Source: Actinomycetes bacterium
GTDB lineage: Bacteria > Actinomycetota > Humimicrobiia > Humimicrobiales > Humimicrobiaceae
DNA: 64,000 nt
NCBI GenBank assembly: GCA_022396035.1
Contig: JAIOXO010000003.1
Location: forward strand, 22,927 to 86,926
Reading direction: 5' to 3'
The position numbers and the translations under genes are program-made. The notes under the pieces were generated by a model that saw only the letters and a program-made list of their open reading frames with translations, had not been told where the DNA came from and made no database searches. This document shows positions 8,882 through 48,366 of this stretch, in pieces (position 1 is the stretch's first letter; each line of letters starts with the position of its first letter).

Positions 8882-8894
8882 TGCTTCTCCTTCC

Positions 8895-8970
8895 TGGAGC
8901 CGATGACCGGACTTGAACCGGTAGCCTGCTCATTACGAATGAGCTGCTCTGCCAATTGAGCTACATCGGC
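8895..8970 (-). tRNA. tRNA-Thr (anticodon CGU), with encoded CCA
   Basis: A hand-folded cloverleaf fits: acceptor GCCGATG/CATCGGC, D-arm GCTC-AATTGGCA-GAGC, anticodon arm GCTCA-TTCGTAA-TGAGC (U33, CGU at 34-36, A37), T-arm ACCGG-TTCAAGT-CCGGT, discriminator U, then CCA. The body is 73 nt. Confidence 0.8.
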
Positions 8971-8977
8971 AAATTGT

Positions 8978-15758: not shown

Positions 15759-16377
15759 GTCTGCCTTTTTTATATGTTTATTACAGATTTTGATTATGTA
15801 ATGCTAACAACATTAAAAATAAACGTCAATGAATTGAAATTGTTGGCTTTAGAAAAGATAATCAGGAAAGAACAGGCCTGTATAAGGGGAGCAAAACAGA
15901 ACCTGTTTTTGGTCAGAAACCAATATCACAATACAGCTTCAGAAGCCAAACCTGCAGCCAGTGCTTCCAAGCCAAAACTGTTTTAACCTGCTCTTTACCC
16001 CTCTTCCTTTAACCACCATGTTTACAACTTCTCTGGTTCTTTATACATAAAAAAGATAGTTCTCTCTATAATGTAGATAGGCCTTCTATCAAGCTGTCCA
16101 TATAAGTTGAAAACGGCTTATGCCCTTCTTCGGTAATTAAAAATGCATTCCCTATTCTCAATACCTTTAGAATATCAACCCCATGTGCAAACCATACCCC
16201 ACCCCATTTTCTCCCCTTATATGCCATTTTATGGCTTCATATTTCGCCTCCTTCCAAACAACATCAAATAGTTTCCAAAAATTTACCAATTTCCCTCTTC
16301 CACCTTCACAGATTTCTGTTATTATATTAAACACAGAAACGCAACCCGTATTTACATAAATAGGACCAGAAACCACT

Positions 16378-16614
16378 ATGCCATTAATGCCAGAAATAGA
16401 AGCCGTTAAGAATAATACCGACTCCACGATCCTGGTATACTTCAATAACGGAATCATAAAAATTTTTGACTTAAAGCCATTACTGGATAACACACAGCAC
16501 CCCACTCTTACAGAAATAAAACTCAATCCCGAAGGAACAGTCCTAAATGGCAACACAGCTATAAGCGACTACGACCTCTGGGCCAAAAGCAAATTCTACG
16601 GATGGAGTAAATAA
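16378..16614 (+). CDS. DUF2442-family small protein
   Basis: 78 aa. Pattern IEAVK...LVYFNNG..KIFDLKPLL...L.....F..V.......L.W matches DUF2442. Its stop abuts the ATG of the next gene. Confidence 0.5.
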   Translation: MPLMPEIEAVKNNTDSTILVYFNNGIIKIFDLKPLLDNTQHPTLTEIKLNPEGTVLNGNTAISDYDLWAKSKFYGWSK

Positions 16615-17493
16615 ATGTCTGAGTTTAGGAAATACTTTGGAAAATCACAAGATCCTATACTGGTTATAGACAGCCAAAAACATACAGCACAGCTTAACAC
16701 CGCCATGTACAATTTACTGGATGCCGGCCATTTGTATAGTTCCAAAGAAAAATTGACTATAGAAAATGTTAAATCTCTTCTAAATAAAGCCATAATTGAC
16801 AAAGAGAAAGCATCAAAGTTGGTCAGCGCTTTAGAAGATGTATCAATGGAAAGCTTTAGGATAGATGCTGCTTTTAAAAACAAAGGGCAAGATTTGACTT
16901 TTAGTATATCAGTTTCCCCACTTACAGAAGCCAAGGAAGAGGCAGTTGGTAAAATTTTTATCTTTAAGGAATTAACAGAATACATCAAGTTGCTGAACGC
17001 ATTTAAAGAGCAATCCATAAGGGACTTTCTAACCGGTGCCTACAACCAAAGATTTTTCTATAACTGTCTGCATAGGGAAATTAAACGGTTTGACAGGTAT
17101 AAAAATCCTTTCTGTTTACTGATGGCAGACATAGATAGTCTTAAAAAGGTAAATGATACCTACGGCCACTTAAAAGGAGATGTGCTGCTAAAGGATGTAG
17201 CTTCTATATTAATGGCCAACATCAGGGAGGGAATAGATTTTGTGGCAAGGTATGGAGGAGATGAATTTGTTGTAATATTGATAAATACCGACATAGGCCC
17301 AGCCAAAGAAATAGCAGAAAGGATAACTAAAAACTACAATGACCTAAAAGTTCAAGGTACCTCGCTTTCGGTAGGGATATGCCAATACCAGAAAGGCTTG
17401 GAAGCCGATGGTGTAATAAAAAAAGCGGATATGGCAATGTATGAAGCAAAGCAGGGCGGTAGAGGCCTGATTAAATCATGCTCCATACCTTAA
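16615..17493 (+). CDS. Diguanylate cyclase (GGDEF domain) with an N-terminal PAS-like sensory region
   Basis: 292 aa. Active-site RYGGDEF. Shows the DxLTG...N motif pattern of GGDEF domains. Confidence 0.85.
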   Translation: MSEFRKYFGKSQDPILVIDSQKHTAQLNTAMYNLLDAGHLYSSKEKLTIENVKSLLNKAIIDKEKASKLVSALEDVSMESFRIDAAFKNKGQDLTFSISVSPLTEAKEEAVGKIFIFKELTEYIKLLNAFKEQSIRDFLTGAYNQRFFYNCLHREIKRFDRYKNPFCLLMADIDSLKKVNDTYGHLKGDVLLKDVASILMANIREGIDFVARYGGDEFVVILINTDIGPAKEIAERITKNYNDLKVQGTSLSVGICQYQKGLEADGVIKKADMAMYEAKQGGRGLIKSCSIP

Positions 17494-17760
17494 AAATCAC
17501 GTCTCGCCCACAAAGCTTAAGCAATTTCAGACATATTTAAATGTATGCTCCGACATCTCCACCACCACAATCTACATAACCCTCACCAATATAGAAGTCG
17601 AAACCATTATGTAATCTCATGCCAACATTTTATGGCAGTTTTTAACAGATTGATTTTAAAAAAAATGAAGTTATACTATTTTTAAACCGGGCAAAAGATG
17701 ATTTAAGGCTGTAGATATAAAGTAAAATATATTATTAGGAATTTTTTAGGAAATTAAAGT

Positions 17761-18540
17761 ATGATTAAATTAATAGCCATAGATGCCGATGGCACCTTGC
17801 TTGACTCCAGCTCCAAAATAAGTAAAGCCAACCAGGCAGCCATAAATAAATGCATACAAACAGGGCTGAAGGTAGTACTGATAACCGGAAAGAACCTGAA
17901 ATCAGCCAGGCGGATTATAGATACCTTTTCTCCGCCCAACCCCCATGTAGTATCCAATGGCACCCTCATAGTAGACCAAGGTCTCCAGCATCTTGACTAC
18001 CGGCTGATTGACCCCGGCTCCTTTAAGGCCATTGTAAAATTTGCCAGAAAAACCGGCCAGCTGCTGCTTACCAGCACCCTGGACGGAGACCTTCTGTACG
18101 AAAAAACCCTCCATGGTATAGAACATAAGCACTATATGAGGAAGGTTGAAGACCTGCTGGCCCAAGAGGTAACCAGCCAGGTACTTCTGGCCACCATTTT
18201 AAGAAGGCAGGACTGCGAACCTATCAAATACCATCATATCGCCCCCGATAAAAAGGGTATAAAGATAAGGGATGCAGGATTTAACTATGTAAACATATTC
18301 AACCGCCAGGCAGGAAAAACCTTTGCCCTTAAAAAAGTGCTGGGCTACCTAAATCTGGACAGCAGCCAGGTAATGGCCATTGGAGACGGCCAGAATGACC
18401 TGGGAATTATAACTATGGCCGGAATTGGGGTAGCCATGGGCAATGCCTGCAGCCAGCTAAAGAAGGCAGCAGATTTTGTAACCGAGGACCTGGACCATGA
18501 CGGAGTAAGCAAGGCCCTGAGCAGGGTCCTGGGCATATAA
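17761..18540 (+). CDS. Cof-type HAD-IIB family hydrolase (sugar phosphatase-like)
   Basis: 259 aa. N-terminal IAIDADGTLL (DxDGT) and C-terminal GDGQNDL motifs. Confidence 0.8.
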   Translation: MIKLIAIDADGTLLDSSSKISKANQAAINKCIQTGLKVVLITGKNLKSARRIIDTFSPPNPHVVSNGTLIVDQGLQHLDYRLIDPGSFKAIVKFARKTGQLLLTSTLDGDLLYEKTLHGIEHKHYMRKVEDLLAQEVTSQVLLATILRRQDCEPIKYHHIAPDKKGIKIRDAGFNYVNIFNRQAGKTFALKKVLGYLNLDSSQVMAIGDGQNDLGIITMAGIGVAMGNACSQLKKAADFVTEDLDHDGVSKALSRVLGI

Positions 18541-18609: not shown

Positions 18610-19440
18610 ATGAAAAGAACCCTGGCATATAAAATTACACTGATATTCCTACTAACGGTAATTATTATATTCGCCACTGCCTGTAACCAGACTCTGATAG
18701 ACATTTACACCGAATTAAATACTGATTACAGCGGAACCAGAGTGGTGGATTTGGCAGTTAAGACCGAATACCTGCAGAAGGGTGATGTGGTGCTGTCCGG
18801 GGAACAGAGCCTGTACCAGAAGCTTACCGCCACCCTTCCTGAAGGGGAAATAGACACTTATGAACAGCAGGATTATACCCACTTTAGATCTACTGCCACT
18901 TTCAAGGACATAAACTTTTTACAGCACATATCCATAGATAATTTTTCCCAGGAACCGACCCCCCGGTTTTACGCCAAAATGAGCACCGATGACTACTTTT
19001 TTTACAGCGATTATTTCTTCTTTGACTATGTGGATATGGAAGTGGACCAGAGCCTGATTGAAGCTTCCGGCCAGAACTCCGATTACCGCCGCCTGGAGGA
19101 CCTGATTCAGGCAGATTCTGATCTGCTGAGCATAACCTACCAGATTAAGTTTCCGGTAAAAATTATAGAATCCAATGCCGATGTCATTGGTGATAACAAT
19201 ATAGCCATATGGAACATAAAGTACGGGCAAAAAAGGGATATAAGGATAGAAGGGAAGAAAACTAAATTTTTATCCTATTTCCTTATTATCGCCCTGGGCC
19301 TGATCGGGCTGTTCATAATATTCATAATATTTGCCCTGGTTTTTAGTTCCAGAAGAGGCCGCCGGCAAAAAGACAGCCGCAAACCCCTTTACTCCTATGA
19401 CAATTACTTTAAAAAAGAAAAGCATCTAGATGACTATTGA
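18610..19440 (+). CDS. Hypothetical lipoprotein with a C-terminal transmembrane anchor
   Basis: 276 aa. Signal peptide plus lipobox (IIIFATAC). C-terminal hydrophobic helix followed by a basic tail (SSRRGRRQKD). Confidence 0.5.
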   Translation: MKRTLAYKITLIFLLTVIIIFATACNQTLIDIYTELNTDYSGTRVVDLAVKTEYLQKGDVVLSGEQSLYQKLTATLPEGEIDTYEQQDYTHFRSTATFKDINFLQHISIDNFSQEPTPRFYAKMSTDDYFFYSDYFFFDYVDMEVDQSLIEASGQNSDYRRLEDLIQADSDLLSITYQIKFPVKIIESNADVIGDNNIAIWNIKYGQKRDIRIEGKKTKFLSYFLIIALGLIGLFIIFIIFALVFSSRRGRRQKDSRKPLYSYDNYFKKEKHLDDY

Positions 19441-19984
19441 TAAAGGGATTGAACTTGATACCCCCCTGACTGAAGACAAAATCAAAAACTTGAGGGCAGG
19501 CGACATGGTACTTCTAACCGGCACCGTCTACGGTGCCCGGGATATGGCCCACCAGAGACTGATAACTACCATAAAAACAGGCCAGCAGCTGCCCCTGGAC
19601 CTGGAGAACTCCACTATATTTTATGTAGGCCCTTCCCCCGCCCCGCCCCATAGAGCCAGCGGGTCAGTAGGCCCAACCACCTCCGCCAGAATGGACAGCT
19701 TAACTGAACCCCTGCTAAAACAGGGACTGAGGGCAATGATAGGTAAGGGCAAACGCAGCCCGGCCTACCGCCGGCTTCTAAAAAAATACAGGGCGGTATA
19801 CATGGTGGCGGTGGGAGGAATTGCTGCCTGCCTGGGATTAAAAATTAAGAGCATAAAGCCTATAGCCTACCAGGATCTGGGGGCAGAGGCCATCTATGAA
19901 ATAAAGCTGGACCGTTTCCCCTTATTTGTAGCCTATGATGTATATGGCGGGGATATCTTTGCTGAAACCCTGCGCAAAGAATGA
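19430..19984 (+). CDS. Class-I Fe-S hydro-lyase beta subunit (fumarate hydratase / L(+)-tartrate dehydratase beta, FumB/TtdB-like)
   Basis: 184 aa. Pattern RAGDMVLLTGTVYGARDMAHQRL...GPTTSARMD is typical of the beta subunits. Confidence 0.8.
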   Translation: MTIDKGIELDTPLTEDKIKNLRAGDMVLLTGTVYGARDMAHQRLITTIKTGQQLPLDLENSTIFYVGPSPAPPHRASGSVGPTTSARMDSLTEPLLKQGLRAMIGKGKRSPAYRRLLKKYRAVYMVAVGGIAACLGLKIKSIKPIAYQDLGAEAIYEIKLDRFPLFVAYDVYGGDIFAETLRKE

Positions 19985-20799
19985 CATCCCAAAAATACAG
20001 CCACCGGCAGAGTAGCCATATGGCAGGGAGCTACCTCAATATTGCAGGCCAGGGCTGTAGTGTTGCCGCCCAGGCCCTGGGGTCCGATACCCAGGCTGTT
20101 TATCTTGCTTAGAATCTGCTGTTCCAGCTGCCGGTACCGGGGATCAGCATTTCTTATATCCAGATTCCTGAAGCTGGCCTTCCTGGCCAGTGAAGTAACC
20201 CCGGAAGCAGTGGACCCGATACCCAGGCCAATAATAACCGGGGGGCAGCACTTGGTAACATTTTCTTCTACTATACTTTTTACTTCCTCAATTATCGCCT
20301 CGGGGCCGGATGAAGGATTTAGCATCCTCAGATAGGAGCAATTCTCGCTTCCCCCTCCCTTCAGGTGTACCTCTACAGATATCCCCTGCCGGCCGGTAAA
20401 ACTGGTGCTGACTATGGCCGGGGTATTGGTGCCGGTATTTTTTCTGCCATAAAGAGGATCATCCACAATGGACTTCCTCAAATAATTACTGCTGTATGCA
20501 CTGGCAACCGCATCATTTAACTCCCGGTACAGGCGCCCGCTTTCTTCTATGCACACATCAGAGCCTATACCCAGACTTATATATACCGTACCGCAATCCT
20601 GACAAAGGGGAAGTTTTTCCTTCCTGGCTACCTGCTCATTTTCCAGTATGTATCCCAGTATCTTTTTGGCTACCGGGCTGGTCTCCGCAGCCAGCGAATG
20701 TTTGATGGCAGAAATTATATCCGGGGGCAGATTAAAGCTGGCCTCAGCTATCAGCTTTTCTACCTGCTTTTTTACGGTTGTAATTTTTATACTTTTCAT
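19933..20799 (-). CDS. Class-I Fe-S hydro-lyase alpha subunit (fumarate hydratase / tartrate dehydratase alpha, FumA/TtdA-like)
   Basis: 288 aa. N-terminus MKSIKI...LIAEASFNLPPDIISAIK...LPLCQDCG carries catalytic-domain Cys residues. It is convergent with the beta gene, and their 3' ends overlap. Confidence 0.8.
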   Translation of the reverse strand: MKSIKITTVKKQVEKLIAEASFNLPPDIISAIKHSLAAETSPVAKKILGYILENEQVARKEKLPLCQDCGTVYISLGIGSDVCIEESGRLYRELNDAVASAYSSNYLRKSIVDDPLYGRKNTGTNTPAIVSTSFTGRQGISVEVHLKGGGSENCSYLRMLNPSSGPEAIIEEVKSIVEENVTKCCPPVIIGLGIGSTASGVTSLARKASFRNLDIRNADPRYRQLEQQILSKINSLGIGPQGLGGNTTALACNIEVAPCHMATLPVAVFLGCHSLRRVSAKISPPYTS

Positions 20800-29904: not shown

Positions 29905-32169
29905 ATTTTTAAAAGGCAAACTTATTTCTACCTTATATTTACACCTTTTTTACTCCTGTTTATACTTTCAGCCTGCATAAAAACGCCCCCGCCCCAGCAA
30001 CAGGACCAGCTGCCGCAGCAAGAGCCGGCAGAGGCAGAAAAACCGGTAGAAAGCCAGCAGCCGGACCCGGTGATAGAAGACGAAGAAAACAGCCAGGATG
30101 AATTTTTACCCAAAGACCTTTACCACAACCTGGAAATTGAAACCCAGCGGGACTTCTTCTTAAAAGCAGTAGAACATTTCCATAAGCAGCAGTACATACA
30201 GGCCCAGTTTTATTTAGACAAAATCAAGGACCAGTACCTGGTGCTTCAGGACCATACATATTACTATCTGGCCAAATCCCTGTTGATGCAGCAAAAATAT
30301 TTTTTATCCCAAAAATATTATTCAGACCTTATGGAGCTGCATCCTGGAAGTATCTGGATCGAAAAGGCAGCTCTGGAATATGCAGACCTGTTTTTTATAC
30401 AGCAGGACTACCCCCGGGCAGAGACCCTGTATCAGCAATTCTTAACCCAGCATCCTGATTCAACCTATTCTCCTTACGGGCAGTTCCAGCTGGCATTATG
30501 CCAGCAGAATAACCAGAAACTGGAACAAGCTTACCAGAATTACAAACAGGTATGGCTGAATTATCCCACCAATGAATATGCTGAAACCGCCCTGGACTTT
30601 CTGTACAAACTTATAGAAGAAAACGGCCTGCAGCCCTTTGTAGCCACCCCCGAGCAGTTATATCAGCGGGCCGAAATATTTTTTCAAAACTATAACTACT
30701 ACAGCGCCCTGGAACAGCTTAACCTTATACTGGAGCAGCCACAGCTCTCTACCCAGCTTAAAGCCCAGGCTCTGTTCAGGGCGGGAATGTGTTATTACAA
30801 CCTCAGGGACTATGCCCAGGCCGAACAATACCTGCTCCAATGCTACCAGAGCGCTGCCGACCACCAGCTGGCCGACGACAGCCTGTACTTTTTGGGCCGG
30901 GCAGCAACCAACCTTGGAGACAACCAGAAGGCCATTAACTATTACCAGGACCTGGTTAGCCGGTATCCCCAAAGCAATTTTAGCGATGATGCCCTTTACC
31001 GCATTGGAAGAATATACTTTTTTGACGACCAGATGGAAGCAGCCATAGAAAACTTCAACCTGGTGCTGGAAAAATATCCCAGTGGTGACCGTCTTTCCGA
31101 AGTACTGTGGGAACTGGGATGGATTCACTACAGCAGCCATAATTACCAGCCGGCCCAGGATATATTTGCCAATATGGCTTCCTCTTTTAAGGGCAGCGAA
31201 CTGGAAGAAAAAGGCCTGTTCTGGCAGGCCAAATGCCTGCAAAAATCAGGCCAGCAGCAGCAGGCAGTGGAACTATACAAGCAGATAGTGGGCATTAATT
31301 CCTATTCCTATTACACCTTTGTAGCCAGAGAAATACTGGAACAGATGGATATCTACCTGTATATACCTCCCATTGACAGCTCCGCCAATCCGCTTAACCC
31401 AAACATTGAACAGGTGGTACCCTCGGTCTATGAAGTCTTAAATGACGATGTCTCGGCTATTGAAAACCCGCTGCATATAAGAAAGGCTTTAGAGCTGTTA
31501 AAAATAGATTTACTTCAGAGCGCTACCCTGGAAATAACTGCCGGACAGCAGGAGATAGATGATGATCCGGTACAGCTGCTTATACTGTCCACCCTCTACC
31601 ACCAATCGCAGGATTATACCGACAGCATAAGCATCTTATCCCGCAATACCAGCAGCCTGAGGTATGGCCTGGAAGACAGCTACAAGGATTTTTATTACTA
31701 TCTCTTGTACCCCTATGCCTTCCAGCAAATGGTAAACAACTATTCTGGCCATTATGGAATAGATCCATTGTTCGTGCTGGCAGTAATGAGGCAGGAAAGC
31801 AGATTCCAGCCTGATGCGGGATCCTATGCGGGAGCAAGGGGCCTGATGCAGATTATGCCCGCTACCGGAAGGGGAATAGCCCAGGACCTGGGAGTACAGG
31901 AATTTGATACAGACCAACTGTTTGATCCGGAAGTAAGTATCAACATGGGAGCCTATTACTTAAAACAGCAGCTTAACGGCTTTGGTGGAAACAAATTCTA
32001 TGCCTCCGGTGCCTATAACGGAGGACCGGGAGCAATGGCCAGCTGGGTTAACCGCTGGGGGGATAAGGACCTATATGAATTTGTGGAAAATATTCCCTAT
32101 GATGAAACCAGGGATTATGTAAAGAAAGTAATGGGCAACTATTACATGTACCGCCTGCTGTACGATTAA
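29905..32169 (+). CDS. TPR-repeat lytic murein transglycosylase (SLT domain), probable lipoprotein. The start is uncertain.
   Basis: C-terminal SLT motif MRQESRFQPDAGSYAGARGLMQIMP. The ORF-track start at GTG 30070 lacks an SD and a signal peptide. The in-frame upstream region encodes signal peptide plus lipobox FKRQTYFYLIFTPFLLLFILSAC, but has no ATG/GTG/TTG. The ATT at 29905 is preceded by SD GAAGGA. Confidence 0.7.
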   Translation: MFKRQTYFYLIFTPFLLLFILSACIKTPPPQQQDQLPQQEPAEAEKPVESQQPDPVIEDEENSQDEFLPKDLYHNLEIETQRDFFLKAVEHFHKQQYIQAQFYLDKIKDQYLVLQDHTYYYLAKSLLMQQKYFLSQKYYSDLMELHPGSIWIEKAALEYADLFFIQQDYPRAETLYQQFLTQHPDSTYSPYGQFQLALCQQNNQKLEQAYQNYKQVWLNYPTNEYAETALDFLYKLIEENGLQPFVATPEQLYQRAEIFFQNYNYYSALEQLNLILEQPQLSTQLKAQALFRAGMCYYNLRDYAQAEQYLLQCYQSAADHQLADDSLYFLGRAATNLGDNQKAINYYQDLVSRYPQSNFSDDALYRIGRIYFFDDQMEAAIENFNLVLEKYPSGDRLSEVLWELGWIHYSSHNYQPAQDIFANMASSFKGSELEEKGLFWQAKCLQKSGQQQQAVELYKQIVGINSYSYYTFVAREILEQMDIYLYIPPIDSSANPLNPNIEQVVPSVYEVLNDDVSAIENPLHIRKALELLKIDLLQSATLEITAGQQEIDDDPVQLLILSTLYHQSQDYTDSISILSRNTSSLRYGLEDSYKDFYYYLLYPYAFQQMVNNYSGHYGIDPLFVLAVMRQESRFQPDAGSYAGARGLMQIMPATGRGIAQDLGVQEFDTDQLFDPEVSINMGAYYLKQQLNGFGGNKFYASGAYNGGPGAMASWVNRWGDKDLYEFVENIPYDETRDYVKKVMGNYYMYRLLYD

Positions 32170-33116
32170 AACAGTTTTAGAAGCAGCAGCCAGCCGGATA
32201 TGGTTACCGAAGACAGTATGGTAGTAATTATCAGGGAAGAAGAAACCATATCATAATCAGAATGATACTGCTTGGCCATAACATAGGCGATAACTGCCAG
32301 GGGCATTGAAAACTGCACTACTATGATGTTCCTGTCCACCGGTGCCAGCTTAAACACCACCATGGCAAAAAACAGAGCTATGGCCGGCATGATTATCAGC
32401 TTGGCCAGACTCACAAATGCCAGGGCCCTGATATTGCTTTTGATATGAAAAAACCTGAAAGAAGCCCCTATGGCCAGCAAAGCAATACCTATGGACATGG
32501 AGGAAAGTATGTCCAGGACACTGTTTACCGGCGCAGGGATATTTATACCGATAGAGGAAATCAAAATGCCTGCTGCCGCTGACAGAATCAGGGGATCTAA
32601 AAGCAGGTCCACAATAAGTTTCTTTACCTTTATCCTTTCCTCTCCCCGATTAAAAAGTTTAAATATCAGTACGCTGGTAATTATGTTTATGGGGGTTAAA
32701 AACACCACTATAAGGCTGGCTTTGGCCAGGGCCAGGTTGCCATAAGCAGAAATAATGATGGGAAAACCGATAAAAGCCATATTGCAGCGGTAAGAAGAAA
32801 CCATAAGGGCGCCCTTGGTCTTCCTGGGGGCTTTTATAAAGCTGGCCACCGCCATTATAACCAGCAGGAAAGCAAAATAAGCACTGTATATGGTAACAAT
32901 TATCCTGAAATTAAAAATCTCCGAAAGATTATACTTTATGATACTGATAATTATCAGCGCCGGCAGGCCCACATTATAGGCCAGGCGGTTCAGTCCACTT
33001 ACTGCCGTGTCTCCGATAATCTTTTTGCGCCTCAGAAAAAAGCCTATAAGTATTACCACAAATATGGGAACCGTAATACTCAGTACTTCCAGCACCAGGC
33101 CTACAATATTCTTCAT
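32166..33116 (-). CDS. AEC (auxin efflux carrier) family membrane transporter
   Basis: 316 aa. About 10 predicted TM helices. Typical AEC two-repeat layout. Confidence 0.7.
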   Translation of the reverse strand: MKNIVGLVLEVLSITVPIFVVILIGFFLRRKKIIGDTAVSGLNRLAYNVGLPALIIISIIKYNLSEIFNFRIIVTIYSAYFAFLLVIMAVASFIKAPRKTKGALMVSSYRCNMAFIGFPIIISAYGNLALAKASLIVVFLTPINIITSVLIFKLFNRGEERIKVKKLIVDLLLDPLILSAAAGILISSIGINIPAPVNSVLDILSSMSIGIALLAIGASFRFFHIKSNIRALAFVSLAKLIIMPAIALFFAMVVFKLAPVDRNIIVVQFSMPLAVIAYVMAKQYHSDYDMVSSSLIITTILSSVTISGWLLLLKLF

Positions 33117-34078
33117 GATTTAAAATAATCCAATACTTTTAACAAATTTTGCTTTCTCTCCTCGCCCCCTATATAAGTGACTGCCCTTCTGGCTTCCCTT
33201 ATATAGTTTTCAAATTTAGCTCTGGCGATATCCGCAGCCCGGGTACTATCTATCATCTTTAGTATCTTCTCTATATTCTGTTCAGTTAAGGGCTTATTTT
33301 CAAGAATCTGTGAAGCTGTTTTTTTAAATTCCTTATTCTTTAAAGCATAAATTACCGGCAGGGTAAGATTTCCCTGCCGCAGATCATTTCCAACTGGTTT
33401 GCCGATATCCTGGCTCTCCCCGATATCAATATCCAGTAAATCATCATTTATCTGAAAAGCAATGCCTAAAAGTTTGCCAAATCTTGCCAGTCCTTTAATC
33501 TCCCTGGGTCCAGAATTAGACAGCAGGCCCCCCAGCACACAGCTGACCTTAAACAAAGAAGAAGTTTTTTCATTTATCATTTGAAAGTAATACTTCTCCC
33601 CCTGATCCAGATTCTTATTCTTCTTAAGCTGGTCAAATTCCCCCCTCACCAGGTGCTCGGCTGCCAAGCACATATGCTTTAAGATTTCCGGCCGGTTATA
33701 AGTGTTTAGCAAAGAAAAAGTGTGGGTAAACAGATAATTACCCACATACTTGGCAGTATCATTGTTATACAGGCTCTGTATGGTCTGTTTTCCCCTCCTG
33801 AGGGCAGAACGGTCAATTATATCATCATGTATCAGCGATGCGGTATGGATGATTTCTATAGAAGCAGCGGCCGGAAGAAGGTATTCCAGATTGTAATTGC
33901 TGTTTTTGGCACATATCAGAAACAGGGCCGGCCTTATTCTTTTACCCCCGGCAAGCAGGGTATTGGTAACCCCCTGTTTCAGTACCCCGTCCAGCCCCTG
34001 GGTAAAATCATGCAGGTATTGCTCTAGCTGCTGGAGTCCATGGGCTAAAAATCCGGATACCTTGAATTTGCTTAACAT
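33113..34078 (-). CDS. Long-chain polyprenyl diphosphate synthase (HepT/IspB-like)
   Basis: 321 aa. First and second Asp-rich motifs LIHDDIIDRS and FQINDDLLD. Confidence 0.85.
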   Translation of the reverse strand: MLSKFKVSGFLAHGLQQLEQYLHDFTQGLDGVLKQGVTNTLLAGGKRIRPALFLICAKNSNYNLEYLLPAAASIEIIHTASLIHDDIIDRSALRRGKQTIQSLYNNDTAKYVGNYLFTHTFSLLNTYNRPEILKHMCLAAEHLVRGEFDQLKKNKNLDQGEKYYFQMINEKTSSLFKVSCVLGGLLSNSGPREIKGLARFGKLLGIAFQINDDLLDIDIGESQDIGKPVGNDLRQGNLTLPVIYALKNKEFKKTASQILENKPLTEQNIEKILKMIDSTRAADIARAKFENYIREARRAVTYIGGEERKQNLLKVLDYFKS

Positions 34079-34088
34079 AATCTATTAC

Positions 34089-35807
34089 CTATTTTTTAAA
34101 TAATGCCCGTTTTATTATTCTAAACCAATTAAAGCTGCGGTTAAACAACGGAAATTCCAGCTCTTTTTTTTCACATACCGTGGACATGCTGTATTTATCG
34201 GTTTCCTGCTTCAGTCTTTGAAGAAGCTGTTGCTGTTTGAGCTTATCCTCTATACCCATGGCATAATCAATTTTCTTCATGGTTTCGGTAGCCTGCATTA
34301 TCCGGTTCTGGTTATCCTCCATTACCTGCCGGCTAATAGAGCCGGCCCTGCCCTTGAGCCGGTTCAACCCCAGGGCAGCCTCATAGGTAGACTGTACCAG
34401 AAGGTCCCTGCTGATGTATTTGCTTTCATAATTTAAAATATATTTCCAGGAAGGCTGGGTTATAGCCTCTATATGCTGGGCCAGTGTCTTTCTGGTAAGC
34501 CGGTATCCAAATTTTTCAGGTTGCTCAAAGGTCCTGCTTCCCGGATCCATAAACGGAGCCATGGGTGAAATAAAGGGCATAAATCTGCTGTCCCAGCCCA
34601 GCCGGTCATAGATATCCTCACAGAAACCAACCGTGTCCAGTATGGACTGGCGATCCTGCCCGGCAATCCCGGTCATAAAATAAAGGTCAAACCTTACTGC
34701 TCCCCTGTCCAGGGCATAGCTTATGGATTCTATAAGCTGTTCATTGGAAAAATGCGGCTTACCCATTTTTTCCCTTATAGATGGGTCATGGCTGTCAGGA
34801 CTTATCTCGTACAGGACATTTTTAAAAATCTTATGGACCTGGTCAAAAAACTCCCTGCGGGGAGGCTGGAAAAATTCAAAGAAGACCTGTAAATCCCGGG
34901 GAAGGCTGCGGGCATGTCTGAAAAATTCCTGAACATAGTCCGGTCCGTTCTGATTTATATCCCCCAATATAAAAACAGGGGCATTAATATATTTGCCTAT
35001 GTTTTTTATCTCTGCCACCAGCCTTTCAGGAGACCTGAAAGCAGGACGGCTGCGTTCTGCAAAAACCCTGAAGGCGCTGGCCGAACCCCCGCAACCGGAA
35101 CAATCCATATAGCAGCCCCTGACTACAGGAATGGTAGTTATGGGATAGCGGAGCCAGTCAGAAAAGGGCATAAGGCTTTTAAAATCCAGGTACCTTAAAG
35201 CCATATCAAACATAATACTGTAATCAAAATCTATCTCTTCTAAATCCGGGGATATGCAGGTCAAAGGATTTGCCTCTACCCGTCCATCTTTCTTGTAAAC
35301 CAGATTGGGTATATGGCCGAGCCCGGAATAATCCCCGCTTTTTATGGTTTGCATTAATGTGGCCAGAGGAATTTCGGTAGAATCACCCCTCAGCACATAA
35401 TCCACCTGGTTAAAATTTATCAGTTCCCGGTGATAGTAAGAGGCTGAAAATCCACCGAATATAACCGGGGCATCAGGGTGGTATTTTTTAATCAGTTTGG
35501 CCACTTCCAGTGAACCCTGGGCATGAGCAAGCCAGTGAAGGTCCAGGCCAAAAGCATTCGCTTTTAACCTGCTTATAAATTTCTCCGCATCAAAACCGGG
35601 AGCTTCCTGCATCCGGTAAGCCAGGTTTACAATCCTAACCCTTATACCTTTCCGGCTCAAATAATTGGCCATGGTTAAAAATCCAATGGGGTACATCTCA
35701 AAAATAGGGGTGCTGGGCACTAGATCACTCATGGGCCCATACATTATGGTTTTCTTTCTAAAATCATACACGCTGGGTGCATGAACCAAAACTAAATCCG
35801 CCTTCAT
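34089..35807 (-). CDS. B12-binding domain / radical SAM domain protein (class-B rSAM)
   Basis: 572 aa. N-terminal Rossmann-like cobalamin-binding region. CxxxCxxC cluster motif VVRGCYMDCSGCGG. Confidence 0.8.
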   Translation of the reverse strand: MKADLVLVHAPSVYDFRKKTIMYGPMSDLVPSTPIFEMYPIGFLTMANYLSRKGIRVRIVNLAYRMQEAPGFDAEKFISRLKANAFGLDLHWLAHAQGSLEVAKLIKKYHPDAPVIFGGFSASYYHRELINFNQVDYVLRGDSTEIPLATLMQTIKSGDYSGLGHIPNLVYKKDGRVEANPLTCISPDLEEIDFDYSIMFDMALRYLDFKSLMPFSDWLRYPITTIPVVRGCYMDCSGCGGSASAFRVFAERSRPAFRSPERLVAEIKNIGKYINAPVFILGDINQNGPDYVQEFFRHARSLPRDLQVFFEFFQPPRREFFDQVHKIFKNVLYEISPDSHDPSIREKMGKPHFSNEQLIESISYALDRGAVRFDLYFMTGIAGQDRQSILDTVGFCEDIYDRLGWDSRFMPFISPMAPFMDPGSRTFEQPEKFGYRLTRKTLAQHIEAITQPSWKYILNYESKYISRDLLVQSTYEAALGLNRLKGRAGSISRQVMEDNQNRIMQATETMKKIDYAMGIEDKLKQQQLLQRLKQETDKYSMSTVCEKKELEFPLFNRSFNWFRIIKRALFKK

Positions 35808-36602
35808 CTAAATCCTGTCCCATAACCGGTTGACCTGGCCTGCCAGCCGGCGCTGCAGCCAGTCTACTTTTAACTGTGCTATGATATCATCTAATTGGTT
35901 TTTAATAAAATTCTTTTTGTCTTCCAGCGCCTCCATCTTCATAAAACCAGTGGCTTTTAGAAGTTCTTCCAGCTCCCGGCAACTCTTAAGCAGGGTGATA
36001 TGGTTTACAAAACGGTAAATATAACTTATATCTCCGGCCAGGTCCCTGGGCCAGGGAGGAGGGAAAATACTGTAACCAATTAAAAAGCTATTCTTAAACA
36101 GTGAATTAATGCTTAGCATAGCCCCCACCCTTTCTTCCAGAATGCTTTCTATGGAAATCTTTTTTTCTTTCAGTTTCAGTAAATCGGCGTAAAGAGAAAG
36201 CCGGGCCTTATGGATTGATTTTAAAGAATTGATTACTTCATCAAAGATAAGCATATCCTCAAATTTTACCAGGTAGTTTACCGCCCGGGAATAAAGCACA
36301 TCCCCAAATAACAAATTCAGGGTATAGCGGTCCTGGTCCTGGTCCAGTATTTTTTTACTGCCCCCCCACATATCAAAATTATGGAAACCGCAGCCCAGCC
36401 CCAATAGTTCAATTCCTGCCGCCAGATTCAAAATCTTCCATTCCCGGGAACCCTTCTTTCCAGTTAGATTGCCCCTGTATAAAAAAAGAAGCCCGGATGC
36501 GTATAATAATCGGCTATCATAATAGGGCTTAAGGTCAAAGGGGTAAAGCGTGGCTATATAGTCCAGCTCTTTTTCCACTATAGCCCTAATTTTCTTAACC
36601 AC
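35808..36602 (-). CDS. Polyprenyl-synthase-like protein lacking DDxxD motifs (possible non-catalytic partner, HepS-like). GTG start.
   Basis: 264 aa. Region AAGIELLGLGCGFHNFDM resembles the first-motif region of trans-prenyltransferases but without the Asp-rich motif. Confidence 0.4.
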   Translation of the reverse strand: MVKKIRAIVEKELDYIATLYPFDLKPYYDSRLLYASGLLFLYRGNLTGKKGSREWKILNLAAGIELLGLGCGFHNFDMWGGSKKILDQDQDRYTLNLLFGDVLYSRAVNYLVKFEDMLIFDEVINSLKSIHKARLSLYADLLKLKEKKISIESILEERVGAMLSINSLFKNSFLIGYSIFPPPWPRDLAGDISYIYRFVNHITLLKSCRELEELLKATGFMKMEALEDKKNFIKNQLDDIIAQLKVDWLQRRLAGQVNRLWDRI

Positions 36603-37755: not shown

Positions 37756-38316
37756 TTATTTTTTCCCCTCTACCTTTATATCTTTTTTATCGGTAAGCTC
37801 AATCAGTTTTTCAATTATTATACCCATTATTATTACAAAAACTATGGTTAAACCAAGCCTCAACAGGGTAAATTTTAATCCTAAAAACTGTATCTCTATA
37901 AGTTCCTGGGGTAACTTTATGCAGGCCCAGGCGGATATAAAGATGATTATATTGGATCTTTTGGCACCCTTGTTAAGCAGTGCGGCTGCCATGGGAAAAG
38001 CGATATACAAAGGGCCGGTAGGCAACATGCCCAGGGCCAGGGATAAAACAATACCTTTGGTACCGGAGGCATATCCCATATATTTTACTACCATCCGATC
38101 CGGAATCCAGACCGAAAACAGCCCTATTATAATCATAACTGCAGGCAGTACCAGTATCAGCTCTAACAGGTAATTTTTAGACACGGTAAGTACCGGGACA
38201 GCCTTCTGGGGGAATATAAACAGTACAATAGCTGCTGCTATCAGAACTACAGCCATAGCCATGATATCCTTGCGCCTATTATTTTTACTTTTTTTGGCCT
38301 GGTTTATATCTTTCAT
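37756..38316 (-). CDS. Permease, C-terminal half of a split COG0701-type (ArsP-like) membrane permease
   Basis: 186 aa, about 5 TM helices. Overlaps the upstream half by 4 nt. Confidence 0.6.
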   Translation of the reverse strand: MKDINQAKKSKNNRRKDIMAMAVVLIAAAIVLFIFPQKAVPVLTVSKNYLLELILVLPAVMIIIGLFSVWIPDRMVVKYMGYASGTKGIVLSLALGMLPTGPLYIAFPMAAALLNKGAKRSNIIIFISAWACIKLPQELIEIQFLGLKFTLLRLGLTIVFVIIMGIIIEKLIELTDKKDIKVEGKK

Positions 38317-38813
38317 AATATTACCCCCATAATCACGGCAATGGCTACCGCAAACAGAAAGCTAAGTACATTCCTTAAAATAGTCATCTTTTTTCCCATT
38401 TCCCTGAGCTCCAGGGGCAGTGTTGTTATTCCCACCATGGTAAGAGTAGTAATAAAAGCAGCAACCGACATAACTGAAGCCCCTCCGTCCAAAAGCGAAG
38501 CTGCCAGTGGAAATGATATAAGGGCGGGGATAAACAGGATGGAACCCAGAACTGCAGTAATCATTATTCCCCAGAAACCGGCCCGCTCACCTATAATATT
38601 GGATATCAGGTCAGCGGGAAAGAATCCTAAAAGAAAACCTATAAATACTATAATTATAATTATTAGCGGAAGTATCTTGGCGAAGGTTTTTACAGCAATT
38701 TTCAGTGATTTCTTGGTCTTTTCTTTGCTTTTTAGCACCGAAAATATAAGCCAGCCTATAGCTATGGCATTAATTATTATGGCTGTAAGATAATTACTGG
38801 CTATATTTCTCAA
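38313..38813 (-). CDS. Permease, N-terminal half of a split COG0701-type membrane permease
   Basis: 166 aa, about 4-5 TM helices. Translationally coupled to the second half. Confidence 0.6.
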   Translation of the reverse strand: MRNIASNYLTAIIINAIAIGWLIFSVLKSKEKTKKSLKIAVKTFAKILPLIIIIIVFIGFLLGFFPADLISNIIGERAGFWGIMITAVLGSILFIPALISFPLAASLLDGGASVMSVAAFITTLTMVGITTLPLELREMGKKMTILRNVLSFLFAVAIAVIMGVIL

Positions 38814-41162: not shown

Positions 41163-42212
41163 TTATTTTTTCTTAACCGGAAACCAGTGGCTGGTCCGGT
41201 TAGCAATGCTTACCAGGGCCAGCATTACCGGTACCTCTACCAGTACCCCCACCACCGTAGCCAGTGTAGCCCCTGACTGCATGCCAAACAGGGATATGGC
41301 CACTGCTACTGAAAGTTCGAAAAAATTGCTGGCCCCTATCATAGCCCCGGGAGCAGCTACTTTATGGGATAACTTCCACGCTCTGGCCCAACCATAGGCA
41401 ATGGTAAATATGAGGAAAGTTTGTATAACCAGGGGAACTGCAATCAGCAATATATGTAAAGGGTTGGACAGTATGATATCACCCTGAAAAGAAAATATTA
41501 TAATCAAAGTCAGCAGCAAACCGATTACGGTTACATGCTTGAATTTCTGCAAAAATACATTTTCAAAATACTCAATTCCCTTCCTTTTTATAATCAGAAT
41601 CCGGGAAATATAACCGGCGGCAAAAGGAATTACCACAAACAATACCACTGATAAAAACAGGGTATTGTATGGCAGAAACACCTCGGTCAAGCCCAGAAGA
41701 AAAGCCACGATAGGCACAAATGCAAAAAGTATAATAATATCATTTACCGCCACCTGTACCAGGGTATAGGCCGGATCTCCCTTACACAGGTGACTCCAGA
41801 CAAACACCATCGCTGTACAGGGTGCTGCCCCCAGCAGTACTGCTCCGGCCAGATACTCATTGGCCAGTGGAACTGAAATCAGCCTGCCAAAAACAATATG
41901 CAGGAAAAAATAAGCTATAGCATACATGGTAAAGGGTTTAATAAGCCAGTTGGTAACTGTAGTAACAGTAAGGCCTCTGGGTTTTTTAGTAGCGTTTAAG
42001 ATGCTGGCAAAATCAATCTTTAACATCATGGGATAAATCATCAGCCATATCAGAATAGCCACCGGTATGGATACATTGGCATATTCAAAACGGCCAAGGG
42101 TCTGGGGCACCACCGGCAAGAACCTCCCGATAGCTACCCCGGCAACAATACACAGGGCAACCCATAGGGTTAGAAATTTCTCAAATAAAGGTAAGCTTGA
42201 TTTTTTTTCCAT
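41163..42212 (-). CDS. acr3: Arsenite efflux transporter, ACR3 family
   Basis: 349 aa. Bile-acid:Na+ symporter superfamily, ACR3 pattern. Lies within an ars gene context. Confidence 0.85.
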   Translation of the reverse strand: MEKKSSLPLFEKFLTLWVALCIVAGVAIGRFLPVVPQTLGRFEYANVSIPVAILIWLMIYPMMLKIDFASILNATKKPRGLTVTTVTNWLIKPFTMYAIAYFFLHIVFGRLISVPLANEYLAGAVLLGAAPCTAMVFVWSHLCKGDPAYTLVQVAVNDIIILFAFVPIVAFLLGLTEVFLPYNTLFLSVVLFVVIPFAAGYISRILIIKRKGIEYFENVFLQKFKHVTVIGLLLTLIIIFSFQGDIILSNPLHILLIAVPLVIQTFLIFTIAYGWARAWKLSHKVAAPGAMIGASNFFELSVAVAISLFGMQSGATLATVVGVLVEVPVMLALVSIANRTSHWFPVKKK

Positions 42213-45995: not shown

Positions 45996-46279
45996 AGCAT
46001 TAGTATTCTACAACAATAAAGGGTTTTTTTGCCACAAAATTAATATAATGGACCGATTTAGTATAAATATGTGCCCATACCTATTTTTGGGGCTATAGCC
46101 ACACAGTCATTGCCCCCATCTACAATATAATATCTACATTTAGCTTATTTCTATAATGATTTTTACCACAGATTAAAGTGTTGATAAATTCAGCAATGCC
46201 GCCCAAACCAGCCAAGCTTAATAATACAGATTTATAGCTTCTAATATTAGTACATCTGGTATAATGTCCTAAAGTTTGT

Positions 46280-46308
46280 TTGACTATATACTTTTTATAT
46301 TTTAATAT
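46280..46308 (+). promoter_or_regulatory. Sigma-70-like promoter for the ArsR-family gene: TTGACT-17 nt-TAATAT
   Basis: -35 TTGACT (46280-46285), 17-nt spacer, -10 TAATAT (46303-46308). SD AGGAGA and ATG at 46334. Confidence 0.35.
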
Positions 46309-46333
46309 GCAAATATAGGAGAATGGGTATTAA

Positions 46334-46663
46334 ATGAAAAAAAATAATTTCTATGTCATTCATGCTGATGTTTGCAAGACTCTTTCCAATCCCAGAAGGC
46401 AAGCCATAATTGATGCCCTGCGTGACGGTCCCTTAACCGTGAATGACCTTATAGGGAAAACTGATATTCCCCAGGCCAATCTTTCCCAGCATTTAGCAAT
46501 TCTAAGAGCCAAGAATGTGGTAAAAACCAAGAAAGAGGGCAATCACGTTTATTATTCAATTTCCAATTCCAAGATAATAAAGGCTTATGACCTTATAAGT
46601 GAAGTACTGATGGAAGAGCTCAGCAACAGGAGTGACATGATTAAGAAATCTTTTAAAAAATAA
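46334..46663 (+). CDS. ArsR/SmtB-family transcriptional regulator, lacking the metal-binding Cys motif
   Basis: 109 aa. HTH LTVNDLIGKTDIPQANLSQHLAILRAKNVV. Confidence 0.75.
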   Translation: MKKNNFYVIHADVCKTLSNPRRQAIIDALRDGPLTVNDLIGKTDIPQANLSQHLAILRAKNVVKTKKEGNHVYYSISNSKIIKAYDLISEVLMEELSNRSDMIKKSFKK

Positions 46664-46681
46664 ACCCTGGAGGAACAGGCA

Positions 46682-46882
46682 ATGGATGATAAAAAAGAAC
46701 AGCCTAAAGGCGCTTTGCTATTTATTTTAGGGGGAGCAGCAATGGGAGCATTTGCCGGCTATCTTATCAACAGGATTGGGGTTAAAAATATTGCTACTCT
46801 ACTTAAAGCTAAAGACATCATACCCCCCAATGTGGCAGATATGGTTAAGGATTTTGCTACCAATAAGCTTGGCGAAAAATAA
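46682..46882 (+). CDS. Small hypothetical membrane protein (one TM helix)
   Basis: 66 aa. GALLFILGGAAMGAFAGYLI hydrophobic helix. Lies 19 nt downstream of the ArsR-family gene. Confidence 0.35.
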   Translation: MDDKKEQPKGALLFILGGAAMGAFAGYLINRIGVKNIATLLKAKDIIPPNVADMVKDFATNKLGEK

Positions 46883-46991
46883 TATCTTTACACAAAAAAC
46901 TACTTACCATCCCATATTAAGGTAAAAAAATATAAGGGCTTTTTGCAGCCCTTATATTTTTATTTCTATCTATTTATTAATCCTTTTGAAG

Positions 46992-47270
46992 TTATCCCTT
47001 ATTACGCGGCTTCTTCTTCATCACCATAAAATAATAGAGGATAGCAGCCAACCAGTAGAGTCCCACTACCCAGGAGGCTATTAATACCACCAGCCATATG
47101 GTTTTTGCGTTCTCCCCTCCGCTTGGAAATTCTTCATTCTTCCTCTTGGCACAATCTACAAGAGTAATAATCCATACAATAAACAAGAACAGGCCGACTA
47201 GTGCAAATATTGCCCAACATATGATAGCAAAAACACCTATACCCATTCCTAATGCGTCTGAAGCTTCCAT
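46992..47270 (-). CDS. Small membrane protein with a PLDc_N-like (cardiolipin synthase N-terminal type) domain
   Basis: 92 aa, two TM helices. Confidence 0.5.
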   Translation of the reverse strand: MEASDALGMGIGVFAIICWAIFALVGLFLFIVWIITLVDCAKRKNEEFPSGGENAKTIWLVVLIASWVVGLYWLAAILYYFMVMKKKPRNKG

Positions 47271-47361
47271 CTTACCTCCTTATTGGTTATCATTGTTACA
47301 TCTATTGAAATTTTATCAGTTAGTTATTTAAACTTCAATACTTTTCTCTAAAAATTATTAA

Positions 47362-47795
47362 TTATTTTCTTAAATTGGGAGAATCGAACCACAGTCCGGT
47401 TATTATATACTCCTCAAGTTCAGTATCCATTACTACAGTAACCAGCACCTCATCCTCACTGAACCAGGCCTGGTAGTACAGGGATATGTTTTCCCCCTTC
47501 CTGAAGCACGGATATACTCCTTGCTGCCTTCCTGGTAAGTACCTATGGCCTTACTCAGCTGTACCGAGAGTGACTGATTAAAATTTTCTTCAGTAATTGA
47601 CTGAAGCATCTGGTCTGAAAATTTCCTGGAAAAACGGCCATAGTCTTCCTGGGCCAGCCCCACCAAACAATTTTCTGTAATCCTGTCTGCCTTTTCCCTG
47701 ACCTCAGGACTCAACTGTATTTCATTTCTGGAACAACCGTAAAAAGATAATGCCAGCAACAGCAACAGCAAGGCAATAATTATCTTCCTAACCAT
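47362..47795 (-). pseudogene. DUF3887-like secreted/lipoprotein gene. It is interrupted by a frameshift at a G5/A4 homopolymer, or this is a sequencing error.
   Basis: The ORF-track product, 47433-47795, ends in an out-of-character tail (...SGRGKTYPCTTRPGSVRMRCWLL). Shifting frame at about 47490-47510 (ggaagggggaaaaca) gives a coherent continuation, ...KGENISLYYQAWFSEDEVLVTVVMDTELEEYIITGLWFDSPNLRK*, ending at 47362. Confidence 0.5.
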
Positions 47796-48366
47796 CGTTC
47801 ACCTTCTTAAGCAGCCAGGCCATATTCTCTCCCAGTATCCTGAAGGTTTTCATTCCTTCTTCATCCTCTCTTATCTGGCCTGGTTTAGATCCCAGGCCAA
47901 AATTCCAGTAAATTGAAGAAGGTAAAATTGTCTGGTTCAACATATACATATTATTTATCTGGTTAAGGGTATCTACTGCACCCTGCCTTCTAACCGCAGC
48001 AACAGCCGCGCATACTTTTCTTTTTAACCGGTAACCGCCAGCCCGGGCACAATAACCCATCCTGTCCACCAGAGCTTTGGCTACAGGAGTAACCGAGCCA
48101 AAATAGACCGGGGAGCCAATCAGTATTCCCTGGCTGCCATAAGCCTTACTAAGGTAACTGTTCATATTATCCTCATCTATTACACAGAATCCATCCTGTG
48201 TCTTCTTACAGACCCCGCAACCGTCACAGGGTAAAATTGTTTCTGAGCCTATCTGTATCAACTCCGTAGTTATATTTTCTTTTTCCAGCTGCTCAAATAC
48301 CGTCTCCATGGCAATAAAGGTATTCCCTTTTTTATGGGGACTGGTATTAAATCCAATTACTTTCAA
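47788..48366 (-). CDS. NADPH-dependent FMN reductase / iron-sulfur flavoprotein-like (flavodoxin fold)
   Basis: 192 aa. N-terminus MKVIGFNTSPHKKGNT. Compact Cys cluster CDGCGVC. Confidence 0.7.
   Translation of the reverse strand: MKVIGFNTSPHKKGNTFIAMETVFEQLEKENITTELIQIGSETILPCDGCGVCKKTQDGFCVIDEDNMNSYLSKAYGSQGILIGSPVYFGSVTPVAKALVDRMGYCARAGGYRLKRKVCAAVAAVRRQGAVDTLNQINNMYMLNQTILPSSIYWNFGLGSKPGQIREDEEGMKTFRILGENMAWLLKKVNDG

Follow-up and report, generated by a model that had tools for sequence, protein, structure and literature searches.

In the Bacillus gerCA-gerCB-gerCC operon, menG sits between hepS and hepT. This heptaprenyl diphosphate synthase/menaquinone locus, comprising in B. subtilis the hepS (gerCA), menH/menG (gerCB, UbiE family) and hepT (gerCC) genes, is the closest known system to an operon that we analyzed in a 64,000-nucleotide stretch of DNA (hereafter, the window) from an uncultured, anaerobic Actinomycetes bacterium of the family Humimicrobiaceae (assembly GCA_022396035.1, contig JAIOXO010000003.1, positions 22,927 to 86,926). 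A contig of Logan run SRR12088348 has the identical sequence, and the genomes closest to the window are metagenome-assembled genomes (MAGs) of uncultured Actinomycetota. Compared to the Bacillus locus, the window operon has an extra gene for a B12-binding radical S-adenosylmethionine (SAM) enzyme between the genes of two putative synthase subunits, an appended auxin efflux carrier (AEC) permease gene, and no ubiE gene. Unlike Bacillus HepS, the presumed small subunit is not a PF07307 protein but a full-length, though degenerate, paralogue of the catalytic one, and the HepT-like protein, in contrast to Bacillus HepT, scores below the TIGR02748 equivalog cut-off. The hepS-menG-hepT architecture as such, with a UbiE-family gene between the subunit genes, was not found in the window; it was found, together with the radical SAM gene, in two related loci (L018 and L024). 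In Actinomycetota, the radical SAM gene forms a conserved unit with genes for the menaquinone side chain (hepS-like, hepT) and for ring methylation (ubiE).

Several described enzymes and complexes resemble parts of this operon. Heteromeric synthases with an inactive paralogue provide an analogy for the putative two-subunit complex, including the plant geranyl diphosphate synthase small and large subunits, the rice protein that recruits geranylgeranyl diphosphate synthase, M. luteus HexA/HexB and S. aureus HepPPS, although the hepS-like protein of the window has no detectable sequence relationship to these inactive-paralogue subunits. Lipid-directed B12-binding radical SAM enzymes (HpnP, HpnR, Grs, Gmm/Cgm/Pgm and Ted) methylate, cyclise or desaturate isoprenoid chains at unactivated carbons (10.1101/2025.10.20.683597; PMC13459092). 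The window enzyme, to which these are the closest enzymes known, shares with HpnP/HpnR, GrsA/B, Gmm/Cgm/Pgm and Ted the N-terminal B12-binding Rossmann domain, the CxxxCxxC core, a context of isoprenoid lipid genes and the lack of an auxiliary-cluster cysteine set. It belongs to a family different from that of HpnP/HpnR and probably from that of Grs, and its neighbours are quinone and prenyl synthase genes rather than hopanoid or tetraether genes. Radical SAM enzymes are also known to C-methylate menaquinone in anaerobes, including Coriobacteriia (MenK, MqnK and MenK2; PMC13386864; PMC10114718); these belong to class C (HemN-like) and lack a cobalamin domain, their architecture being unrelated to that of the window enzyme.

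The operon and its radical SAM enzyme

The operon includes four co-directional genes, listed here in the order of transcription.

35808-36602, minus strand: hepS-like gene, 264 aa, GTG start; predicted catalytically inert paralogue of trans-polyprenyl diphosphate synthases
34089-35807, minus strand: radical SAM gene, 572 aa; B12-binding enzyme assigned to TIGR04190, with the motif C232xxxC236xxC239
33113-34078, minus strand: hepT-like gene, 321 aa; predicted medium/long-chain trans-polyprenyl diphosphate synthase, catalytic subunit, from PF00348 and its motifs
32166-33116, minus strand: AEC permease gene, 316 aa; auxin efflux carrier/Mem_trans family (PF03547), last in the operon

The TAG stop codon of the hepS-like gene (35810-35808) abuts the ATG of the radical SAM gene at 35807, the spacing between the radical SAM and hepT-like genes is 10 nt, and the AEC start overlaps the hepT-like stop by 4 nt. 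Because of these junctions, the four genes are predicted to form one translationally coupled operon. The open reading frame (ORF) list agrees with the gene coordinates given in a preliminary description of this DNA and places all four genes, the AEC gene included, on the minus strand, but the 1-nt gap reported there between the hepS-like and radical SAM genes has to be corrected to 0 nt. A 259-nt spacer lies upstream of the operon, and beyond it is a gene for a PadR regulator. Promoter and terminator pattern scans of the locus yielded matches at chance level only.

The radical SAM enzyme had been described as a 572-aa class-B protein with a CYMDCSGC motif, and the domain analysis upholds this description. 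Its N-terminal part matches the B12-binding domain PF02310 (residues 36-145, 1.9e-12) and its core matches the Radical_SAM domain PF04055 (residues 226-395, 5e-11), both above the Pfam gathering scores. The cluster motif corresponds to C232-Y-M-D-C236-S-G-C239, and C232, C236 and C239 are invariant in an alignment of 15 sequences with 46-69% identity. Judged by its domains and the CxxxCxxC motif, the protein fits class B (cobalamin-binding) of the radical SAM enzymes. A B12 domain alone is no proof of cobalamin use, as exemplified by AprD4, which carries such a domain but makes no use of cobalamin. Since C545 is the only other invariant cysteine in this alignment and C396 is nearly so, an auxiliary Fe-S cluster is unlikely. 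The recorded version of the enzyme (Logan contig) comprises 566 aa and differs in this from the 572-aa form given by the start codon. The C-terminal tail contains no outstanding amphipathic helix, and we make no claim of membrane anchoring.

Among the NCBIfam models, the enzyme matches TIGR04190 ('B12_SAM_Ta0216') with 609.9 bits (E 4.2e-183), the curated equivalog cut-off being 500 bits; the match covers residues 4-536 and model positions 1-530 of 554. Close homologues are named 'TIGR04190 family' by NCBI. By its profile score, the enzyme is a full member of TIGR04190, a large named family without known function, for which a literature text search found no paper naming it. The family is distributed in anaerobic Actinomycetota, Chloroflexota, Deltaproteobacteria, Zixibacteria, Thermoplasmatales and Bathyarchaeota, with thousands of sequences. 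Among 8000 candidates scored, 7086 are homologues at E<=1e-10, and clustering at 50% identity (E<=1e-30) yields 415 clusters. A profile search of the PDB with this family found no solved structure at E<=0.01; the best weak match was the radical SAM core of AprD4.

Assignment to characterized families was rejected, with scores far below the curated cut-offs for HpnR (48.1 bits, cut-off 650), BchE (42, cut-off 481), BzaD (34.8, cut-off 450) and PhpK (22.3, cut-off 600). The NCBIfam models for KedN5 and ApyD are likewise far under threshold. The expectation that the enzyme lies outside the characterized families thus held in the profile assignment, which gave a functionless label. The Pfam and NCBIfam matches include only the B12-binding and Radical_SAM domains and none of the HemN-like families; with a B12 domain present and no HemN-type match, identification as a class-C MenK/MqnK enzyme was also rejected.

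The two putative synthase subunits

The HepT-like protein matches PF00348 (5.2e-64, 216 bits) and contains both aspartate-rich motifs, DDIID as the first (FARM) and DDLLD as the second (SARM), which read IEIIHTASLIHDDIID and FQINDDLLD. The residues at positions -5/-4 before FARM are Ala-Ser; small residues at these positions typify medium- and long-chain trans-isoprenyl diphosphate synthases (trans-IPPS). From these features, the product of 33113-34078 is predicted to be a long-chain HepT/IspB-type trans-polyprenyl diphosphate synthase, catalytic subunit. Its best NCBIfam model is TIGR02748 (GerC3_HepT, component II) with 255.8 bits; because this score is under the equivalog cut-off of 456.55, we name the protein HepT-like and give it no chain length. 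The product of the adjacent permease gene matches PF03547 (9.9e-35), so that the preliminary assignments of both genes, a HepT/IspB-type synthase with two DDxxD motifs followed by an AEC transporter, are confirmed.

The hepS-like protein has no match in Pfam, NCBIfam or the PDB profile search, even when searched as a family of 11 members, and none of these 11 members matches HepS/HEPPP_synt_1 (PF07307) at E<=1. Its sequence contains neither DDxxD nor GKRxR. The family is small, with 82 proteins; those with a named source are all annotated as hypothetical and come from Actinomycetota MAGs, with the exception of one MAG labelled Chitinophagaceae. AlphaFold2 applied to the single sequence gave an unusable model (predicted local distance difference test, pLDDT, 43), and with a 45-sequence alignment it gave a model with pLDDT of 86.2 and a predicted template modelling score (pTM) of 0.87. 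In this model, the protein is predicted to have the all-alpha isoprenoid synthase (trans-IPPS) fold without both aspartate-rich motifs.

A profile alignment of the hepS-like and HepT families by hhalign is in register but statistically weak (probability 5.7%); in it, the FARM helix IEIIHTASLIHDDIID is opposite IELLGLGCGFHNF-D, and the GD helix that comes next is opposite LLFGDVLYSRA. More distant relatives of the operon carry in the same slot, upstream of the radical SAM gene, a DDxxD-less protein that matches hepT (E from 4e-11 to 1e-3), the window hepS-like protein (E from 4e-6 to 3e-2) and the NCBIfam HepT model (6.5e-12). Taken together, the modelled fold, the missing aspartate-rich motifs and these intermediate DDxxD-less paralogues, which match both hepT and the hepS-like protein, mark the hepS-like gene as a degenerate paralogue of the gene for the catalytic subunit. 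The earlier label 'prenyltransferase-like' was therefore right, although sequence profiles by themselves were insufficient to establish this. The product is presumably a non-catalytic partner subunit or a prenyl-chain-binding protein, and most likely this inert subunit with the IPPS fold fills the role of HepS.

Gene neighbourhoods in related genomes and the rest of the window

When one genome of each GTDB species was scanned, at least 594 loci with a homologous radical SAM gene were found. For the best-scoring 80 of them, a sample biased to closer relatives, we extracted the ORFs of each locus, compared the neighbours and constructed a neighbour-joining tree of the radical SAM proteins. In 38 of the 80 loci, a hepS-like, hepT, ubiE or amidohydrolase gene lies on the same strand beside the radical SAM gene (hepT in 18, ubiE in 22 and amidohydrolase in 22 loci), and these 38 loci constitute three Actinomycetota subclades. 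The radical SAM gene is followed by ubiE in 22 loci, and in 21 of these 22 ubiE is followed by the amidohydrolase gene. The link to isoprenoid-quinone genes that the preliminary description had drawn from the window is thereby not only retained but made stronger. The ubiE neighbour passes the cut-offs of the NCBIfam models TIGR01934 and NF001244, scoring 239 bits as MenG/MenH/UbiE (cut-off 158) and 226 bits as UbiE (cut-off 216). The amidohydrolase neighbour resembles TRZ/ATZ hydrolases, 5'-deoxyadenosine deaminase and aminofutalosine deaminase, with all scores under the cut-offs.

The clade of the window includes 13 loci with 56-71% identity of the radical SAM protein. Their gene order is (hepS-like)-radical SAM-hepT-(AEC), accompanied by a convergent SLT/TPR gene. 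The hepT gene follows the radical SAM gene in all 13 loci. A hepS-like gene was found in ten, abutting the radical SAM gene in eight and located 2.6-3.6 kb upstream in two (L008, L013); of the other three, two contigs start at or inside the radical SAM gene (L007, L045) and one locus has no hepS-like gene in the 6 kb upstream (L009). Eleven related genome loci and the source contig (L001), all belonging to this clade, have the AEC gene downstream of hepT, as does L091; it is absent from the other clades compared. In most relatives of this clade (L002-L006, L008, L011-L013), the hepS-like gene is preceded by one or two genes for PaaK-like phenylacetate-CoA ligases, with a sodium:solute symporter gene also there in L002, L004, L005, L006 and L012. 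The window itself has at this position the PadR regulator gene and a stress island.

The second clade (L015, L016, L018, L024 and L075, from Ca. Geothermocultor, Ca. Subteraquimicrobium and relatives) has radical SAM proteins with about 46-50% identity to that of the window. The gene order is inert paralogue, radical SAM, [ubiE], hepT, [amidohydrolase], where brackets denote genes that are not always present, and the outer flanks are unlike those of the window clade. In L018 and L024, the order hepS-like, radical SAM, ubiE, hepT is that of the Bacillus gerC genes plus the radical SAM gene. One or two other B12-binding radical SAM genes occur 1-3 kb upstream of the cluster in L016 (3194-4585), L018, L024 and L075; these additional proteins have weak BchE-, HpnR- or MJ_1487-like matches, all under the cut-offs.

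The third clade comprises 20 loci (46-51% identity) labelled mostly Coriobacteriia or Actinomycetota. Here ubiE follows the radical SAM gene, and the amidohydrolase gene follows ubiE in all loci except one incomplete contig. These Coriobacteriia-type loci are often found near genes for multihaem cytochromes c, ResB, a CcmH-like TPR protein and TatC. Since the flanks of the second and third clades differ from those of the window and the radical SAM proteins are only 46-50% identical, the adjacency has survived rearrangement.

Archaeal members of TIGR04190, from Thermoplasmatales and Bathyarchaeota, have 37-40% identity. In several assemblies of one Thermoplasmatales species, the TIGR04190 gene, whose product is so named by NCBI, is located directly after nuoD-H-I-J-K-L-M-N, the genes of complex I, on the same strand. 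Two small unannotated ORFs of 121 and 83 aa, also on this strand, lie between the nuo genes and the TIGR04190 gene (8001-9851) in L083 and L087-L090. The surroundings of another distant family member offer only a dsr/sirohaem context; the distance to a polyprenyl synthase gene is 8 kb.

MoxR and DUF58 genes are normally paired in a separate operon. In Anaerolineae (L014, L020, L032, L035, L064, L092 and others), the TIGR04190 gene is wedged between them, with the gene for the MoxR AAA+ ATPase on one side and that for the DUF58 protein on the other.

The remainder of the window is ordinary chromosome and contains thrC, hom, argS, holB, tmk, topA, nadABC, alr, glmS, rpoA, secY, ribosomal protein genes and an arsenic/redox stress cluster. 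Two half-length ArsP_1 permease ORFs (37756-38316 and 38313-38813, minus strand) overlap by 4 nt and adjoin the stress island at 38.9-45.3 kb. This island encodes DsbD-like and Usp proteins, an SBF/ACR3-like carrier (41163-42212), thioredoxin, a full-length ArsP_1, a low-molecular-weight phosphatase and an ArsR-type regulator. The genes for the two subunits of class-I fumarate hydratase are normally co-directional. The halves of such an Fe-S enzyme in the window, Fumerase_C beta (19430-19984, plus strand) and Fumerase alpha (19933-20799, minus strand), are on opposite strands, convergent and overlapping by 52 nt. The minus-strand gene at 11493-15758 encodes a 1421-aa fusion of two BcrAD/BadFG ATPase (activase) domains and DUF2229, with a C-terminus like the D-component of 2-hydroxyglutaryl-CoA dehydratase. 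Two stretches (16001-18000 and 46001-48000) have a lower G+C content, about 0.375 against about 0.45 elsewhere in the window; the latter contains only small ORFs, among them one for a 109-aa protein of ArsR/HTH-like type and others for small membrane proteins.

Possible functions of the radical SAM enzyme

The gene context suggests the following scheme. The HepT-like protein and its degenerate paralogue without aspartate-rich motifs would form a heteromeric synthase of long-chain all-trans polyprenyl diphosphate. The polyprenyl chain would feed the pathway of an isoprenoid, menaquinone-type quinone, and the radical SAM enzyme would work in that same pathway, where, by means of cobalamin and a 5'-deoxyadenosyl radical, it would modify an unactivated carbon in either the quinone or the prenyl tail of the quinone. 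We infer the complex, the fate of the chain, and the substrate and chemistry of the radical SAM enzyme from context, and assign a probability of roughly 0.4 to the central claim, that the substrate of the enzyme is a polyprenyl lipid or an isoprenoid quinone. A role in the same pathway, on either the quinone or the chain, is suggested because the adjacency survives rearrangement and the radical SAM gene lies between two subunit genes that would have to be co-expressed. Complex I is a quinone reductase; a role with respiratory quinones agrees with the complex I genes found in Thermoplasmatales and with the cytochrome c genes near the Coriobacteriia-type loci. C-methylation would be the likeliest reaction, chosen as a first guess because it is the commonest chemistry of class-B radical SAM enzymes; cyclisation, desaturation or an unknown step of the anaerobic (futalosine-type) route are alternatives, and taken by itself the proposal of methylation is unlikely to be correct. 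We also speculate, purely, that the inert subunit presents the prenyl chain to the radical SAM enzyme.

A number of observations weigh against this scheme. Neither ubiE nor any further quinone or menaquinone gene was found within the 64-kb window. The region from the alanine racemase gene to topA is syntenic in the window clade, in one long contig, so that conservation of gene order there is weak evidence for functional coupling. More than half of the sampled family, from Chloroflexota, Deltaproteobacteria and Zixibacteria, lacks a prenyl or quinone neighbour: in the MoxR-radical SAM-DUF58 loci of Anaerolineae there is none, the neighbour in Bellilinea/Leptolinea-type Chloroflexota is SurE, those in Deltaproteobacteria are SelA, RluD, a YfiH-like protein and GidB, and those in Zixibacteria are uninformative. 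The tree of the radical SAM proteins follows taxonomy, and the association therefore amounts to about one phylum-level event and one archaeal case. A conserved neighbourhood of the family as a whole was rejected on these grounds, and the idea that the radical SAM family always travels with the hepS-like/hepT pair holds only for members from Actinomycetota. Moreover, nothing in the sequence of the enzyme separates a methylase from the other class-B chemistries.

Alternatively, the enzyme could have a core role unrelated to isoprenoids, such as modification of a cofactor, RNA or protein in anaerobes, and its adjacency to hepT and ubiE in Actinomycetota could be simply inherited gene order. The non-lipid neighbours in Deltaproteobacteria and Chloroflexota, a tree resembling that of a vertically inherited housekeeping gene, the very large size of TIGR04190 and the broad synteny around the window locus all speak for such a role. 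What makes it doubtful, though possible, is that the adjacency to hepT and ubiE has been kept over three Actinomycetota subclades with differing flanks and internal rearrangements, that the radical SAM gene is inserted between two subunit genes with predicted translational coupling, and that Thermoplasmatales provide an independent respiratory-chain context. A bacterial counterpart of the archaeal lipid modifiers (Grs, Gmm/Cgm, Ted), acting on membrane-spanning or other isoprenoid membrane lipids and not on quinones, would have the same class-B architecture; TIGR04190 includes members from Thermoplasmatales and Bathyarchaeota, and enzymes of the Grs/Gmm/Cgm/Ted type act on isoprenoid chains (10.1101/2025.10.20.683597; PMC13459092). 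However, genes for ether lipids or tetraethers were seen at none of the loci examined, and published surveys of Grs have no matches in Chloroflexota, whereas Anaerolineae and hot-spring Actinomycetota commonly carry TIGR04190. A BLAST search with GrsA (E<1e-30, at least 30% identity) had no match in Chloroflexota MAGs (PMC11868695), and a Grs hidden Markov model (E<=1e-40) matched 4 of 533 bacterial hot-spring MAGs, all of them Acidobacteriae (10.1101/2022.08.15.504015). Because the Grs surveys miss groups in which TIGR04190 is common, the two families are, as judged from these published results, probably distinct, and we consider the membrane-lipid role quite improbable.

The preliminary description had suggested that the radical SAM enzyme takes the middle slot of a SAM methyltransferase, which would make it a stand-in for MenG/UbiE as the demethylmenaquinone C2-methylase. 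Both the operon and the whole window indeed lack ubiE, and the position between the hepS-like and hepT-like genes is that of menG in Bacillus. But a bona fide ubiE directly follows the orthologous radical SAM gene in 22 loci, with both genes located between the hepS-like gene and hepT in L018 and L024, and a duplication of UbiE is unlikely for orthologues of about 47% identity that all pass a single equivalog model. The replacement was therefore rejected as highly improbable. Since the two enzymes coexist in 22 loci, they have distinct jobs, the radical SAM enzyme being added to the methyltransferase and not replacing it; in the window clade, ubiE simply left the cluster or was never part of it.

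In the literature searched, we found no description of a B12-binding radical SAM enzyme embedded in a heteromeric prenyl synthase/menaquinone cluster, as predicted here, nor of the hepS-like small-subunit family; TIGR04190 is already known as a named family. As respiratory quinone, anaerobes mainly use menaquinone; in its anaerobic biosynthesis, the late steps and the tailoring steps have been assigned only in part, and the known radical methylations of menaquinone use class-C enzymes. On our preferred reading, in which the radical SAM enzyme acts on a quinone or polyprenyl lipid, we tentatively propose, as a possibility that we hold with some doubt, that TIGR04190 enzymes are widespread and, so far unrecognised, take part in the biosynthesis or tailoring of isoprenoid quinones in anaerobes. 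The lineage of the window may then combine it with a dedicated heteromeric synthase, whose inert subunit may pass on the chain, and may produce an undescribed radical-modified, for example methylated, menaquinone-type lipid. If the gene order were only inherited, the locus would be an ordinary polyprenyl synthase operon beside an orphan enzyme. The inert prenyl synthase paralogue would represent a new small-subunit family for heteromeric prenyl synthases. If TIGR04190 enzymes do act on quinones or prenyl tails, they would constitute a new enzyme class in quinone biochemistry, the annotation of thousands of 'TIGR04190 family' genes would be explained, and the gene would be a marker for a possibly new lipid biomarker of anoxic sediments and hot springs. 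With its function deduced from context, the operon offers a concrete, testable lead on the function of a very large orphan family of radical SAM enzymes.

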